64,000 bases of DNA, from the NCBI RefSeq assembly GCF_054482525.1, contig NZ_CM137006.1, one strand, 5' to 3'. Shown here piece by piece: positions 38,800 to 42,638 of the stretch. Under the pieces are notes generated by a model. It did no database searches, was not told the origin of the DNA, and saw nothing but the letters and a program-made list of their open reading frames with translations. Both the position numbers and the translations under genes were made by a program. The stretch's first letter is position 1. Every line of letters begins with the position of its first letter.

Positions 38800-39438
38800 A
38801 TGCCCGGGCGCTTTGAACTAAAACCAACCCTGGAGAAAGTCTGGCACGCGCCGGACAATTTTCGCTTCATGGACCCGCTGCCGCCGATGCATCGTCGGGG
38901 GATCATTATTGCCGCCATTGTATTGGTGGTCGGATTTCTGCTTCCATCTGATGATACGCCCAACGCGCCGGTGGTGACGCGTGAAGCGCAGTTAGATATT
39001 CAGTCGCAATCACAACCGCCGACAGAAGAACAGCTGCGGGCGCAATTAGTCACACCACAAAATGATCCTGATCAGGTGGCTCCGGTCGCTCCAGAACCTA
39101 TACAGGAAGGCCAGCCAGAAGAGCAGCCGCAAACCACCCAAACGCAACCATTCCAGCCAGATAGCGGAATTGATAATCAATGGCGCTCCTATCGTGTCGA
39201 ACCCGGTAAAACGATGGCGCAGCTGTTCCGCGACCACGGACTGCCCGCTACCGATGTCTATGCAATGGCGCAGGTTGAAGGCGCGGGTAAGCCGCTGAGT
39301 AATTTGCAAAACGGGCAGATGGTGAAAATCCGCCAGAACGCCAGCGGCGTGGTGACGGGCTTAACCATTGATACGGGGAATAATCAACAGGTCTTGTTTA
39401 CCCGCCAGCCGGATGGCAGTTTTATTCGTGCGCGGTAG
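38800..39438 (+). CDS. ytfB: OapA-domain cell-division protein with Pro/Gln-rich linker
   Basis: 212 aa from ATG at 38800. Confidence 0.85.
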
Positions 39439-39538
39439 ATGAAGGGTCAACCAAAAGCCAGCTAAGGAGCGTCTCTTTGATGACCTTACGTCTGGCTTCC
39501 AGTGCCTGGGGGGAAACCATACTGATATGTTGACATCC

Positions 39539-39558
39539 TCCACGCCCTGAAGGACGTG
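39539..39558. repeat. sub-terminal hairpin CCACGCCCTGAAGGACGTGG (TnpB-proximal end)
   Basis: Perfect hairpin read from sequence; matches the hairpin at the other end except two stem bases. Confidence 0.55.
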
Positions 39559-39572
39559 GATCCCTGCTACGT

Positions 39573-40781
39573 TCAGGCTGTCGCCTGAATCATTTCGGTG
39601 GGTTCCTGCTTCAACGAGCGGCCTGACTGCACCATCTCTCCACAGGCAAGAACGGCGTGTCCCGCCGCTAAAATGTTACGAGCGCCGTTTACATCGGCGT
39701 TCGCTGTATATCCACATACCTGGCATCTGAATTTACTTTGTGACAGGCGATTTTCTTTCGCTGTATGACCACAGCACGCGCAACGCTGGCTTGTGTACGC
39801 TGGCGGAACAGCAAGCACCTGACCGCCACTCCAGAGCTGCTTGTACTCAAGCTGGCGGCGCATTTCATACCAGCCCTGATCCAGTATCGAACGGTTTAAA
39901 CCTGATTTTGCCCGGACATTGCGCCCCGGCTGGCTGACCGTACCCGCTGCTGACTTTGACATGTTGCTGACCTTCAAATCCTCAATGACTATCATTGCGT
40001 GGTTTTTGCTGACGGTCGTTGTGACTTTGTGAAGGTAGTCCCTGCGGATATTTGCGATACAGGAATGCAGTCGCTGTATTTTGCGTTTCTGCTTCTGCCA
40101 GTTGTTGCTGAATTTGACCTTGCGGCTTAACTGTCGCTGAAGTCTCGCCAGCGTCTTCTGGTTTTTCTGAAAACTGTTTACAGGCTCAAAGACTGTGCCA
40201 TCTGACAGCGTGGCGAGTTTAGCCACGCCAGCATCCAGCCCGACCATTGATGCTGAAGGGTGAACCGGAGTTGATACTTCACTTTCTGTCTGAATACTGA
40301 TGTACCACTTACCGCAGGACTGGCTGACCGTGACATTTTTCACAACACCCGTGACCTGACGGCTATTCCGGTAGCGCATCCAGCCCAGTTTCGGCAGAAA
40401 AATACGGCTGTTTTCCTGATCGAGCTTAACGCCCTGCGGGTAGCGGAATGCATCATTCTGTCCCCGCTTTTTGAATCGGGGAAAAGCAGCCCGCTTCTGG
40501 AAGAAGTTTTTGTAAGCCCGCTCAAGGTCTTTCAGTGATTGTTGCAATGGCTGTGAGGGCGAATCTTTAAGCCATTGCGTTTCAGTGGCGTTTTTCCACT
40601 CAACCAGCCAGGAAGCCATTTTCCCGTAAGGGATGTATTTATTACCGGCCTTATGATTCTCATTCTGAAGCGCCAGAGCACGATTGAAAACGAAACGACA
40701 TGCGCCTGCGAAGCGCCTCATTTCACACTCCTGTTGACCACCTGGTCTTAACTGGAATTTAAATGCCTGTAATCGTTTCAC
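39573..40781 (-). CDS. tnpB: TnpB (IS200/IS605 OrfB; RuvC-like RNA-guided nuclease family)
   Basis: 402 aa; GLDAGV (RuvC-I Asp), VIEDL (RuvC-II Glu), CxxC...CxxC zinc finger, DVNGARNI (RuvC-III Asp). Confidence 0.85.
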
Positions 40782-40788
40782 AGGTCAA

Positions 40789-41262
40789 ATGATACTTTGG
40801 TCTGTGAAAAAAGAAACCGATATCCGACGGGGAAGGCATTGTGTTTTCCTGATGCATGTTCACCTGGTCTTTGTCACCAGATACCGACGTCAGATTTTTG
40901 ACTATGACGCGACAGAAAAACTACGCACTTACTTTTCAAATGTATGTGCTGATTTTGAAGCTGAACTGGTTGAAATGGATGGCGAACCAGATCACGTCCA
41001 TTTGTTAATTAACTATCCTCCCAAACTGGCGATATCCAGTCTGGTAAACAGCCTCAAAGGCGTATCGGGTAGGTGACTGCGACGAGATCGACCAGATATT
41101 GCAGTCAGGTATTACTACAAAGGCGTTTTGTGGAGTCCTGGCTATTTTGCCAGTAGCTGCGGAGGTGCGCCAATATCCGTCATCCGCCAATACATTGAAC
41201 AACAGCAAACACCTGGTCAGGTGGAAAACCGCGCCTTATATCCCCGCCCTGAAGGACGGGGT
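40789..41262 (+). pseudogene. tnpA: IS200-type TnpA (Y1 HuH transposase) interrupted by in-frame TGA at 41074-41076
   Basis: 95-aa N-terminal part with HuH-like HVHLL motif; same frame continues after TGA with the conserved LWSPGYF C-terminal motif, then reads through the terminal hairpin. Confidence 0.7.
41242..41261. repeat. sub-terminal hairpin CCCCGCCCTGAAGGACGGGG (TnpA-proximal end)
   Basis: Perfect hairpin read from sequence. Confidence 0.55.
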
Positions 41263-41280
41263 TTTACGGCGCACTGGATA

Positions 41281-41670
41281 AACCAGGCCAAGCGTATGCT
41301 GGTTGATCAAATAATATCCCCCAAGCGCAGCAATATTAATATTCACCTGCAATGGGTCGCTATCTGCCTTAAAAATATTGTGTTTCTTCCCTTCATCCAA
41401 TAATTCCATTAAATGCAAGTGCGCATGATTAATTTCTAAGAGACGCTGTGATTTTGCATAATGCACACCTTTACTTTGGTTTTCACTATGCACAATTTTT
41501 AAAAACCTGGGATTAGCAATATAATAACCCCAGGTAAAATCGATGATTTTTTCAATGGATTTTTGTGGCTGGTTAACCTGCTGATTAACGAACGCACCGA
41601 TACCGACAGCGTAGAATAATTACATACCGCACAACAAGAATGTATGGTGTAAGGCGTTGTCAGTCATCTC
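41281..41670 (-). pseudogene. ytfA: regulator-like remnant at the ytfA position; frame broken by TAA after a 15-codon N-terminal ORF
   Basis: Open frame continues into the IS end; short MTDNALHHTFLLCGM ORF then stop then about 130 in-frame codons; family not assigned. Confidence 0.35.
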
Positions 41671-41843
41671 CCTCCCTGGGTGCACCTTTATATCCGTGAT
41701 GAGCGATTTTTGATATTAATATCTTTTACTATCCGCTATTTTCACCACTTCAGAAAACAAACTTATTTTTATTAATATCGATTATTTATTCTGTGCACAT
41801 TCAGCTGCGATATTTATAAAAAAATTAAACAGGCAAAAATACA

Positions 41844-42638
41844 ATGACATTACCAACCACTATTTATTCATTTCCTGCATATTCACCCCGTTTTTCGTCC
41901 ACCGACAAACCAGTAAAATTAAAATTTCATCAATACGCACGCGCTACATTACTTTCAAATCGTGGAAGAGACCATAATTGCGATGGCAGACATACTGTTG
42001 AGATCCACAAACTAGATCTCTCAGACTGGCAAGCATTCAATAAACTAGCGATGGCGTGTAATGCTTACGATGGAATAACAATGAATGGTGATAATTCTTT
42101 TGGATGGAACCATGAAGCTACATTAGATAATATTCACGCCCAGAAATACAATAAAGCTTACGCGGGTGCGAGGTTAACCGCAGAACTGAAATATTTATTG
42201 CAAGATGTCGAATCCTTCGAACCCAACAGTAAATACACAATACACGAGGTTGTTTTGGGTCCAGGTTATGGTACTCCAGACTATACCGGCCAAACGATAG
42301 GATACGTTGTAACCCTTCCTGCCCAAATGCCTAATTGCTGGTCATCTGAACTACCAACAATCGATCTTTATATCGACCAACTTCGCACTGTTACAGGCGT
42401 TTCTAATGCCCTCGGATTCATCATTGCTGCATTGCTAAACGCGTATTCTGATTTACCCCATGATTTGAAAATTGGTCTGCGTTCCTTATCAGGTTCAGCC
42501 GCAATCTACTCGGGTTTGGGTTTCGAGCGAGTGCCGCAGGAGCGAGACATCAGTTGCGCTCGTATGTATCTAACGCCAGCAAACCATCCTGACTTATGGA
42601 CACAAGAGAATGGTGAATGGATCTACTTGCGAAACTAA
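41844..42638 (+). CDS. yjfZ: hypothetical protein YjfZ
   Basis: 264 aa; AT-rich; conserved position before rplI. Confidence 0.85.
   Translation: MTLPTTIYSFPAYSPRFSSTDKPVKLKFHQYARATLLSNRGRDHNCDGRHTVEIHKLDLSDWQAFNKLAMACNAYDGITMNGDNSFGWNHEATLDNIHAQKYNKAYAGARLTAELKYLLQDVESFEPNSKYTIHEVVLGPGYGTPDYTGQTIGYVVTLPAQMPNCWSSELPTIDLYIDQLRTVTGVSNALGFIIAALLNAYSDLPHDLKIGLRSLSGSAAIYSGLGFERVPQERDISCARMYLTPANHPDLWTQENGEWIYLRN

Follow-up and report, generated by a model that had tools for sequence, protein, structure and literature searches.

IS609 in ytfA of Escherichia coli PCN033: a dead transposase beside a functional-looking TnpB and its predicted guide RNA

An insertion sequence with a broken transposase gene raises the question as to whether the nuclease that it also encodes still looks functional and, if so, at which DNA it would be directed. 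This question is posed by an IS200/IS605 element in the window, i.e., the whole stretch of 64,000 nucleotides analysed here (NCBI RefSeq assembly GCF_054482525.1, contig NZ_CM137006.1). The window is a 100% match to E. coli PCN033, and the PGAP annotation of that genome was mapped onto it (window position = locus position + 37799). We consider, with a probability of about 0.85, that the locus represents an IS609 copy in ytfA with a dead transposase and a functional-looking TnpB and guide RNA, for which we infer RNA production, TnpB binding, cleavage, and homing in PCN033. The features of the element and its flanks, in window coordinates, are as follows.

39422..39529, minus strand: ytfA 3' fragment (TetR/AcrR), from PGAP, overlapping the end of ytfB
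39530..39563, minus strand: right end (RE), from 30 related loci, the ssDNA fold, and the end of the K-12 IS609 feature
39573..40781, minus strand: tnpB (insQ-type), 402 aa, apparently intact, called alike by the open reading frame list and PGAP
40776..40809, no strand assigned: palindrome with 14-bp arms, an inverted repeat spanning the gap between the tnpB and tnpA starts
40789..41220, plus strand: tnpA (Y1/HUH transposase), pseudogene, from the PGAP 'internal stop' and comparison with intact copies
41230..41277, minus strand: left end (LE), with the element start at 41277, from the empty site, other loci, and the K-12 feature
41278..41282, minus strand: target site and predicted TAM 5'-TTTAT-3', core TTAT, in flanking DNA directly 5' of the left end

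The element is IS609, which belongs to the IS200/IS605 family and has its tnpA and tnpB genes in divergent orientation, and spans positions 39530-41277 (1748 bp). The K-12 IS609 feature has the same length and the same end bases, and differs from the window copy at 32 positions (98.2% identity). IS609 is already known: it has a name, K-12 carries it, and RefSeq applies the label "RNA-guided endonuclease InsQ/TnpB", which is found at the PCN033 locus together with a tnpA pseudogene. A preliminary interpretation made from the letters alone (the sequence-only reading) had assigned the element to the IS200/IS605 family, as is borne out by NF033573 matches, subterminal hairpins, and the near-identity to K-12 IS609; its span of 39520-41280 was correct to within a few bases, the exact ends being 39530 and 41277. 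The PCN033 chromosome holds two IS609-like places.

These ends are supported by the empty site, by four other insertion loci, and by the K-12 IS609 feature. When the left and right flanks are joined, the resulting empty site is matched exactly (41/41) in 1,857 of the 5,426 complete E. coli genomes over which the count was taken; hence, there is no target duplication. Other placements of the right end were considered because the empty site of APEC O18 seemed to be off by 2 nt, and were rejected once the other loci and the exact 41-mer reduced this difference to one C/T polymorphism, at position 3 of the guide. In APEC O18, ytfA is an uninterrupted gene of 215 aa. In the window, IS609 interrupts this TetR/AcrR gene, fragments of which remain to its left and right (39422-39529 and about 41278-41568), so that the element sits inside ytfA and not, as had been supposed, between ytfB and a regulator-like remnant. 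The insertion is old and common to about a third of E. coli.

Comparison with K-12 and other E. coli genomes, which the sequence-only reading had proposed, defined the target motif as well as the exact ends. The left-end flank reads TTTAT or CTTAT at five E. coli loci, and TTAT (n=11) or TTAC (n=7) at 18 loci of other genera; TTAT or TTAC is therefore found 5' of the left end across 23 insertions. The LE hairpin, CCCCGTCC-TTCA-GGGCGGGG, occupies positions 41261-41242, and the AAAA immediately 5' of its foot (41265-41262) presumably serves as the internal guide to cleavage at TTAT. In what is a sequence correlation only, AAAG is present in six of seven TTAC-flanked elements and AAAA in nine of 11 TTAT-flanked elements, the remaining two having an A run one base shorter (AAAC). 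The last base of the flank covaries with the base 5' of the LE hairpin, which fits the IS608 model. The RE, in order, is composed of GGAT, the hairpin CCACGTCC-TTCA-GGGCGTGG, AGGATG, and the cleavage site TCAA, which finishes at 39530. All 30 of 30 related loci have the common terminus GGAGGATGTCAA, beyond which the flanks differ; the shared terminal sequence of related elements is also given as GGAGGAUGUCAA, after which the flanks diverge.

The two subterminal hairpins repeat one another in direct orientation over 21 nt (39539-39559 and 41241-41261, 90% identical), and each folds as minus-strand ssDNA (LE at -14.1 kcal/mol, z -3.9; RE at -7.7 kcal/mol, z -2.6), in agreement with the matching hairpins that had been noticed at both ends. 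The element thus lacks terminal inverted repeats and carries an imperfect subterminal hairpin at either end, both on one strand, lies 3' of a short specific motif with its target site not duplicated, and encodes a Y1 HUH transposase, here as a pseudogene, all of which are features of IS200/IS605 elements.

The start codons of the two genes are divergent and separated by a 7-bp gap (tnpB GTG at 40781; tnpA ATG at 40789, alternative GTG at 40804), and the palindrome at 40776-40809 folds as a plus-strand RNA at -14.4 kcal/mol (z -2.7). The in-frame TGA by which tnpA had been judged to be disabled was confirmed: PGAP reports an internal stop, and codon 96, which is TTA (Leu) in intact copies, is TGA at 41074-41076. 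A second lesion, absent from the sequence-only reading, has changed the normal stop codon 144 from TAG to CAG (41218-41220), and consequently the frame is open to 41403. The internal stop separates the HUH motif (HVH), on its upstream side, from the presumed catalytic tyrosine, in RQYIEQQ, on its downstream side; both tnpA halves match NF033573 (profile positions 2-84 and 89-126 of 126). The window copy cannot move by itself, since its Y1 transposase gene is cut before the presumed catalytic tyrosine, and, with its own tnpA dead, its excision needs a transposase in trans. The codon-96 TGA is a widespread, old allele that this copy shares with many others: 3,370 of about 7,850 IS609 tnpA copies (about 43%) carry it, at a minimum of four loci, K-12 included, and it mostly goes together with loss of the normal tnpA stop. 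K-12 IS609, which has the same allele, gave 0/758 new insertions in mutation-accumulation lines (PMC5009759). The TGA was also considered as a conserved recoding signal, which was rejected since relatives from other genera have Leu at this position.

The TnpB module looks functional on comparative grounds. The protein has the HTH/WED-REC, RuvC, and zinc-finger (TNB) architecture, contains the Pfam domains HTH_OrfB_IS605 (PF12323), OrfB_IS605 (PF01385), and Cas12f1-like TNB (PF07282), and scores 385 bits against NCBIfam NF040570 'guided_TnpB' (cut-off 100). Residues D183, E267, and D363 align to the catalytic D/E/D of ISDra2 TnpB (8h1j/8bf8, phmmer E 2e-54). In a set of 28 homologues, these residues and the zinc cysteines C334, C337, C353, and C356 do not vary, and no TnpB residue is private to the window copy. 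The claim of intact RuvC motifs and an intact zinc finger therefore stands, and the alignment on which it had been staked, against ISDra2 TnpB and the 28 homologues, contains no substitution at the three catalytic positions.

Judged by its substitution ratios, tnpB is under purifying selection, with a dN/dS of 0.32 for eight copies from five loci and of 0.27 for 12 copies at ytfA. The open reading frame is kept in 12 of the 13 sampled ytfA copies and frameshifted in one, and two of the 13 have lost the last four TnpB residues; loss of tnpB is therefore tolerated. In a simple scan for promoters, no sigma-70-like site was seen ahead of tnpB on its own strand; promoter-like sites were no more numerous than in shuffles and none was usefully placed. 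From reading the sequence, there is no strong Shine-Dalgarno before the GTG start codon.

A structured RNA is predicted to be encoded across the 3' end of tnpB and the RE, on the tnpB strand. Its elements are listed below, the helices being those obtained with RNAalifold.

39530..39699, minus strand: predicted omega-RNA (reRNA) scaffold, from RNAalifold, pair counts, and the covariance model
39699-39683, minus strand: scaffold helix
39676-39671 with 39538-39533, minus strand: scaffold long-range pairing
39668-39652, minus strand: scaffold helix
39646-39642 with 39609-39605, minus strand: scaffold helix, RAGATH-18-like core
39637-39631 with 39622-39616, minus strand: scaffold helix
39593-39584 with 39577-39569, minus strand: scaffold helix
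39560-39539, minus strand: scaffold RE hairpin
39514..39529, minus strand: predicted 16-nt guide 5'-CAUAUCAGUAUGGUUU-3', placed by the TnpB paradigm (PMC10097598)

The scaffold measures about 147-170 nt (39676/39699 to 39530) and covers the final 42 codons of tnpB together with the stop codon, as well as the RE. An RNA near 39515-39760 on the minus strand had been proposed, of which the position and strand were right and the scaffold is shorter. The structure was assessed in an alignment of 28 sequences by means of RNAalifold and pair counts: of the cells in this alignment, 97.1% are paired, and 15 pairs have changed on both sides (compensatory), against 4.5 in shuffles and at most 10 in slid controls. 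Furthermore, in the covariance-model search that the sequence-only reading had suggested, a model derived solely from 22 homologues of genera other than Escherichia matches 39699-39530 on the minus strand at full length (193 bits, E about 5e-51). Both analyses concern the structure as encoded in the DNA. In a permissive-threshold Rfam scan, the scores were below the gathering thresholds of HgcC (RF00062; 24.6 vs 50 bits), sot0042 (RF02656; 18.7 vs 88 bits), and RAGATH-18 (RF03064; 29.5 vs 44.9 bits), and this sub-threshold likeness reflects shared omega-RNA modules, not membership. The possibility that a 16-nt inverted repeat (39622-39637/41094-41109) serves for RNA-RNA pairing was rejected: it would be present in the same sense, and not as complementary sequences, in both the omega RNA and the tnpA mRNA.

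The predicted guide would come from the ytfA 3' fragment, directly after the RE and from 39529 downwards, which supports the earlier proposal of a guide taken from the ytfB-side flank. TTTAT followed by CAUAUCAGUAUGGUUU is the exact empty ytfA site in the 1,857 genomes, and the guide sequence itself occurs once in the window, with TCAA in front of it rather than the TAM. No terminator was found after the guide in the promoter and terminator scan. A literature search returned no report of a transcript corresponding to an IS609 omega RNA; insQ with TnpB returned incidental mentions only, and insQ with sRNA returned nothing.

These results suggest a mechanism that draws directly on the identity and ends of the element, its target motif, the catalytic residues, selection on tnpB, the covarying structure, and the natural target. 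IS609 inserted into ytfA, a TetR-family gene, 3' of a TTTAT. An RNA of about 165-190 nt from the tnpB strand, consisting of the scaffold (39699/39676 to 39530) and then about 16 nt of flank (39529-39514) as guide, would be bound by TnpB. The complex would cut DNA bearing TTTAT and CATATCAGTATGGTTT, i.e., the IS-free ytfA allele, and repair of the break from the IS-bearing copy would retain the insertion or copy it back. Such a scheme has precedents: ISDra2 TnpB acts with an omega RNA, a TAM, and a 16-nt guide (PMC10097598), and TnpB-driven homing and element retention have been published (10.1101/2023.03.14.532601, PMC10690162). IS609 TnpB is among nine TnpB proteins that were purified in one study (PMC12781874), the available part of whose text states no activity specific to it.

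An alternative is that the whole element is an inert relic, in which tnpB is silent or inactive and its intact look derives from gene conversion and a short decay time. The immobility of K-12 IS609 in mutation-accumulation lines (PMC5009759), the promoter scan without a promoter-like site for tnpB, and the frameshifted tnpB in one of the 13 ytfA copies are consistent with such a relic, and copies from different loci are as alike as those at the same locus, which fits sequence exchange among copies. A dN/dS of 0.27-0.32 at a synonymous divergence of about 3.7% is, however, unlike that of a neutral open reading frame. In the same 13 copies, there is one disabling lesion in tnpB compared to at least five in tnpA, although tnpB is 2.8 times longer. 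The TnpB catalytic residues are invariant, and the RNA structure is held by compensatory changes across genera; we therefore regard a relic as unlikely.

It is more improbable still that the UGA-C at tnpA codon 96 is leaky and yields some full-length transposase and weak autonomy, with the stop serving as an attenuator. The base following the stop is C (TGACTG), and UGA stops followed by C terminate weakly in E. coli; the number of copies and loci with this TGA, and the well-conserved protein sequence past it among copies, would also suit readthrough. Yet Leu is present at codon 96 in 20/20 other-genus relatives whose alignment spans it, and the K-12 copy with the same allele did not transpose (PMC5009759). 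The spread of the TGA can be explained by mobilisation in trans from the many TTA copies, or by gene conversion, and the allele is usually joined to normal-stop loss. Finally, other copies carry unrelated frameshifts, and tnpA is therefore visibly decaying. Host takeover of TnpB, as an RNA-guided (TldR-like) regulator or in some other function that no longer serves the element, would suit an old insertion inherited at a fixed locus and a tnpB under purifying selection while tnpA decays, but is hardly credible given that the RuvC triad, which known domesticated TnpB-derived regulators have lost (PMC10705468 and general knowledge), is intact, that the same gene is present in mobile copies at many loci, and that the guide is merely local flank which differs between strains.

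Within the preferred reading, in which the transposase is dead and the TnpB module looks functional, a more speculative extension is that the ytfA copy persists as a transposase-free drive allele. tnpA has been lost repeatedly (nonsense, two different frameshifts, stop loss), and the guide matches the IS-free ytfA allele of a third or more of E. coli. Since the guide matches the empty allele and tnpB and the guide RNA appear to be under purifying selection, empty alleles that arrive from outside or arise by recombination may be cut by TnpB, which would bias inheritance species-wide without transposition. We hold this extension to be possible, though rather doubtful.

The closest relative is K-12 IS609 (insQ/b1432 and the pseudogene yncK/b4578, at ydcO), which shares the divergent genes, the TGA at codon 96, and the CAG at codon 144, and whose InsQ differs from the window TnpB at 9/402 residues. 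The window copy lies in ytfA whereas the K-12 copy lies beside ydcO, and their guides differ because the insertion sites do. ISDra2 of Deinococcus radiodurans (PDB 8h1j, 8bf8, 8exa) has the same TnpB architecture and catalytic D/E/D, and its RNA likewise overlaps the tnpB 3' end and the RE and takes its guide from the flank, as predicted for IS609. Both RNAs have a long-range pairing between the bases that immediately precede the guide and a segment far towards the 5' end: -5..-3 with -103..-105 in the ISDra2 pseudoknot (PMC10097598), and -9..-4 with -147..-142 in the predicted IS609 RNA. The TAM is TTGAT in ISDra2 as opposed to the predicted TTTAT/TTAT of IS609, the IS609 scaffold is longer and has a RAGATH-18-like module, and the divergent gene layout of IS609 is unlike that of ISDra2. 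Activity has been shown for ISDra2, and would be expected by inference for IS609.

IS608 of Helicobacter pylori resembles IS609 in its one-strand subterminal hairpins, its lack of target duplication, and an RE that ends in TCAA. Both insert 3' of a tetranucleotide (TTAC in IS608; TTAT or TTAC in the IS609 group), and the base 5' of the LE hairpin covaries with the last target base in the IS609 group as in IS608. The IS608 hairpins, TTAC target, and recognition rules were reportedly described by Barabas et al. in 2008. The tnpA and tnpB genes of IS608 overlap in the same direction, whereas those of IS609 are divergent, with starts 7 bp apart. The closing helix and core of the IS609 RNA (CCUGUGGAG...CGUUGAAGCAGGAA), invariant in the 28-sequence alignment, match the consensus of the RAGATH-18-derived reRNA of IS607 TnpB (RF03064; PMC11061315). 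The internal stem is 17 nt in IS609 compared to about 44 nt in the RAGATH-18 family model, and the module lies within the tnpB coding sequence of a Y1 element in IS609, but is intergenic in IS607, a serine-transposase element.

As IS609 is named, present in K-12, and annotated in RefSeq, and TnpB homing has been published, the discovery value of this locus is small. The analysis yields a precise inventory of a TnpB system native to E. coli (ends, TTTAT/TTAT motif, scaffold limits, and guide), in which the predicted 16-nt guide has an exact target in 1,857 sequenced genomes. The population picture is that of a nuclease module outliving its transposase, and the locus could be a natural test case of the retention/drive model in the best-studied bacterium.

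The window matches the chromosome of E. coli PCN033 at 100% identity, and its genes, in RefSeq order and with two frames from the ORF list, are as follows.

Genes of the region
ytfB, first gene
TetR/AcrR gene, 3' fragment
39573-40781, minus strand, tnpB ("RNA-guided endonuclease InsQ/TnpB family protein"), 402 aa, GTG start
40789-41076, plus strand, first part of tnpA (pseudogene, flagged "internal stop"), 95 codons, TGA end, frame open beyond
TetR/AcrR gene, second fragment
yjfZ, last gene

The sequence-only reading had placed the element between ytfB and a regulator-like remnant; the neighbours were rightly named, while the arrangement was not, as fragments of the TetR/AcrR gene ytfA flank it on both sides. 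In APEC O18 (comparison locus L003), this gene is uninterrupted at the same position (215 aa). Beyond an intact ytfA, other strains differ, carrying 3-ketoacyl-ACP reductase and sugar phosphate isomerase (L003 1623-3456 versus window 41278-42638), and a 5'-truncated ytfA followed by yjfZ occurs in PCN033 and K-12-like strains, which suggests that a separate, second event damaged ytfA in the PCN033 lineage.

Alignment with APEC O18 gave flank positions of 39526/39529 and 41277/41278, a seeming 2-nt discrepancy that four more insertion loci (ydcO, yedK, yeaQ-side and yfeD) settled as one C/T polymorphism of the flanking DNA. On the minus strand, each E. coli copy compared starts with CCGGTGCGCC... 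or CCAGTGCGCC..., directly 3' of TTTAT or CTTAT, and finishes with ...GGAGGATGTCAA. Given this shared start and finish, the element extends from 41277 down to 39530 (1748 bp). The earlier estimate of 39520-41280 was thus correct in approximate position, its exact limits being amended by the other loci and empty sites, and the proposed comparison with K-12 and other E. coli also defined TTTAT/CTTAT as the left-end target. The annotated IS609 feature of K-12 MG1655 is likewise 1748 bp, with the same end base and 32 differences from the window copy. Furthermore, 30 of 30 related loci of other species finish at GGAGGATGTCAA, with flanks that differ from there on. A synthetic 41-mer joining the left and right flanks matched exactly in 1,857 complete genomes, and comparison of the joined flanks with empty sites revealed no target duplication.

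The two sub-terminal hairpins, already noted as matching, are direct repeats of one another, and each folds as single-stranded DNA on the minus strand. In other genera, 18 loci have TTAT (11) or TTAC (7) as the 5' flank of the left end (LE), and the last target base covaries with the base directly 5' of the LE hairpin (AAAA with TTAT; AAAG with TTAC, 6 of 7). In the work of Barabas et al. in 2008, the IS608 element itself reportedly recognises its cleavage site through base pairing, and the covariation in IS609 relatives is the pattern that would be expected under such a model. GGAT/GAAT lies 5' of the hairpin at the right end (RE), which finishes in TCAA, as in IS608.

TnpB carries the Pfam domains HTH_OrfB_IS605, OrfB_IS605 and Cas12f1-like TNB, scores 385 bits against NCBIfam NF040570, and has ISDra2 TnpB as its best natural match among solved structures (E 2e-54). 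Residues D183, E267 and D363 align with the catalytic positions of ISDra2 TnpB. Neither these nor the four zinc cysteines vary across 28 aligned homologues, among which PCN033 TnpB has no unique residues; the RuvC residues and zinc finger are indeed intact, as had been claimed. Pooled Nei-Gojobori analysis of eight tnpB copies from five loci gave a dN/dS of 0.32 (0.28 upstream of the overlap with the predicted RNA, 0.65 inside it), and twelve ytfA-locus copies gave 0.27 at a synonymous divergence of 3.7%. K-12 InsQ (L086) has Tyr at codon 336 where the window TnpB has Cys336, within a CACC motif; both zinc ligands of the CxxC, C334 and C337, are retained, and 9 residues differ overall. A 2026 study purified nine TnpBs, IS609 TnpB being one of them (PMC12781874).

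The RNA families HgcC, sot0042 and RAGATH-18 overlap tnpB 3' ends, and all three matched minus strand 39517-39700 in Rfam, every match being sub-threshold. Sixty-seven related loci were taken from species-representative genomes and the final 200 nt of 28 elements aligned, from which RNAalifold derived 48 pairs in nine helices. Standard pairs fill 97.1% of cells (shuffles, 93.2%; slid partners, 40-51%), and both sides have changed at 15 pairs (shuffles, 4.5; slid partners, at most 10), with compensatory changes in three helices within the coding region and in the RE hairpin. Many G-U pairs of the predicted RNA become C-A mismatches on the opposite strand. The suggested covariance-model search for a TnpB-associated (omega) RNA, using a model trained on 22 non-Escherichia sequences, yielded one full-length match in the window, 39699-39530(-) (193 bits, E ~5e-51), the only other signal being a weak echo at the LE hairpin. 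Scaffold-end bases -9 to -4 are predicted to pair with -147 to -142, which recalls the ISDra2 omega RNA pseudoknot (-5..-3 with -103..-105; PMC10097598); covariation speaks neither for nor against this helix, as it hardly varies.

The predicted scaffold also holds a module matching the consensus of RAGATH-18 at 39603-39646(-), CCUGUGGAG...CGUUGAAGCAGGAA, which scores 29.5 bits, short of the 44.9 threshold, and is invariant in 28 relatives. RAGATH-18 was reported only with IS607-type TnpB (PMC11061315), whereas the element here is of IS605 type, has a Y1 transposase and holds the module within the coding sequence of tnpB. TnpBs of Photorhabdus and Klebsiella pneumoniae (L032, L034-L038, L050, L070) share ~61-64% protein identity with the query; the same loci reach 84-88% nucleotide identity over 200 nt (~2497-2696 in each, equivalent to window 39800-39601), and similarity ends there. 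This pattern suggests that the RNA-encoding 3' part is mosaic through exchange, or that the RE is a different one.

In the TnpB paradigm, the guide is the flank directly past the RE (PMC10097598; 10.1101/2023.03.14.532601), by which the predicted guide would be CAUAUCAGUAUGGUUU (39529-39514) and the predicted target-adjacent motif (TAM) the LE target TTTAT. Within the window, the only copy of the guide sequence is that at the RE of the element itself, where TCAA precedes it instead of the TAM. Among 5,426 complete genomes, 1,745 have the occupied ytfA junction, 3,216 an uninterrupted site, and 1,857 exactly TTTAT plus the predicted guide's target; guide position 3 is C in other strains, whether the site is occupied or empty.

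The tnpA gene is disabled, as previously proposed. Relative to intact copies (e.g. FORC_043, WP_000604912.1), codon 96 has changed from TTA to TGA (41074-41076; following base C), in agreement with the RefSeq flag, and the normal stop, codon 144, from TAG to CAG (41218-41220). The tnpA halves match positions 2-84 and 89-126 of the IS200 transposase profile, so that the stop leaves the HUH motif on one side and the presumed catalytic tyrosine, in the C-terminal helix, on the other. The TGA allele is not private, occurring in copies at ytfA, ydcO (K-12 included), yedK and yfeD (comparison loci L004, L007, L008, L010, L085, L086); a TGA-centred 41-mer matched 3,370 places across 2,726 genomes, and the TTA allele 4,481 places across 2,532 genomes. 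Since all 20 other-genus relatives whose alignment spans codon 96 have Leu, TGA is a derived nonsense allele within E. coli, presumably spread by trans mobilisation or gene conversion. Same-locus copies are no more alike than different-locus copies. In mutation-accumulation lines, none of the new insertions, 758 in all, came from the K-12 copy, which has the TGA allele (PMC5009759).

Codon 144 is polymorphic (TAG or CAG) among E. coli copies: of the ytfA copies sampled, 11 have no tnpA frameshift, and 8 of these carry CAG. With CAG, the frame crosses the LE hairpin, leaves the element and runs to 41403. The start codons of the divergent tnpB and tnpA lie 7 bp apart. A palindrome with 14-bp arms (40776-40809) spans this gap and would enclose the start codon of either gene in its mRNA (plus-strand RNA fold, -14.4 kcal/mol), where it may brake translation, a role described for IS200. 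The tnpA frame of other genera begins at the codon equivalent to GTG at 40804, which may therefore be the true start. A 16-nt inverted repeat (88% complementary) links 39622-39637, a helix of the predicted omega RNA, to 41094-41109, in tnpA just past the TGA; pairing of the two transcripts was rejected because both sense transcripts carry the same, not complementary, sequence, and the repeat is probably due to chance.

Thirteen ytfA copies were sampled, eight of them at even steps down the ranked list of occupied-junction matches.

State of the two genes in thirteen sampled ytfA copies
tnpB, full length: 10
tnpB, four residues shorter: 2
tnpB, frameshifted: 1
tnpA, canonical: 3
tnpA, normal stop lost: 5
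tnpA, TGA at codon 96: 3
tnpA, frameshifted (two different frameshifts): 2

The longer gene, tnpB, has fewer lesions, in agreement with its dN/dS, in a small sample of copies that are not phylogenetically independent. Apart from small corrections of coordinates and context, the sequence-only reading of an IS200/IS605 element is correct. The element is already known, being named by RefSeq and the K-12 annotation, and the finding is real and ordinary: all features match IS609 and the published TnpB model.
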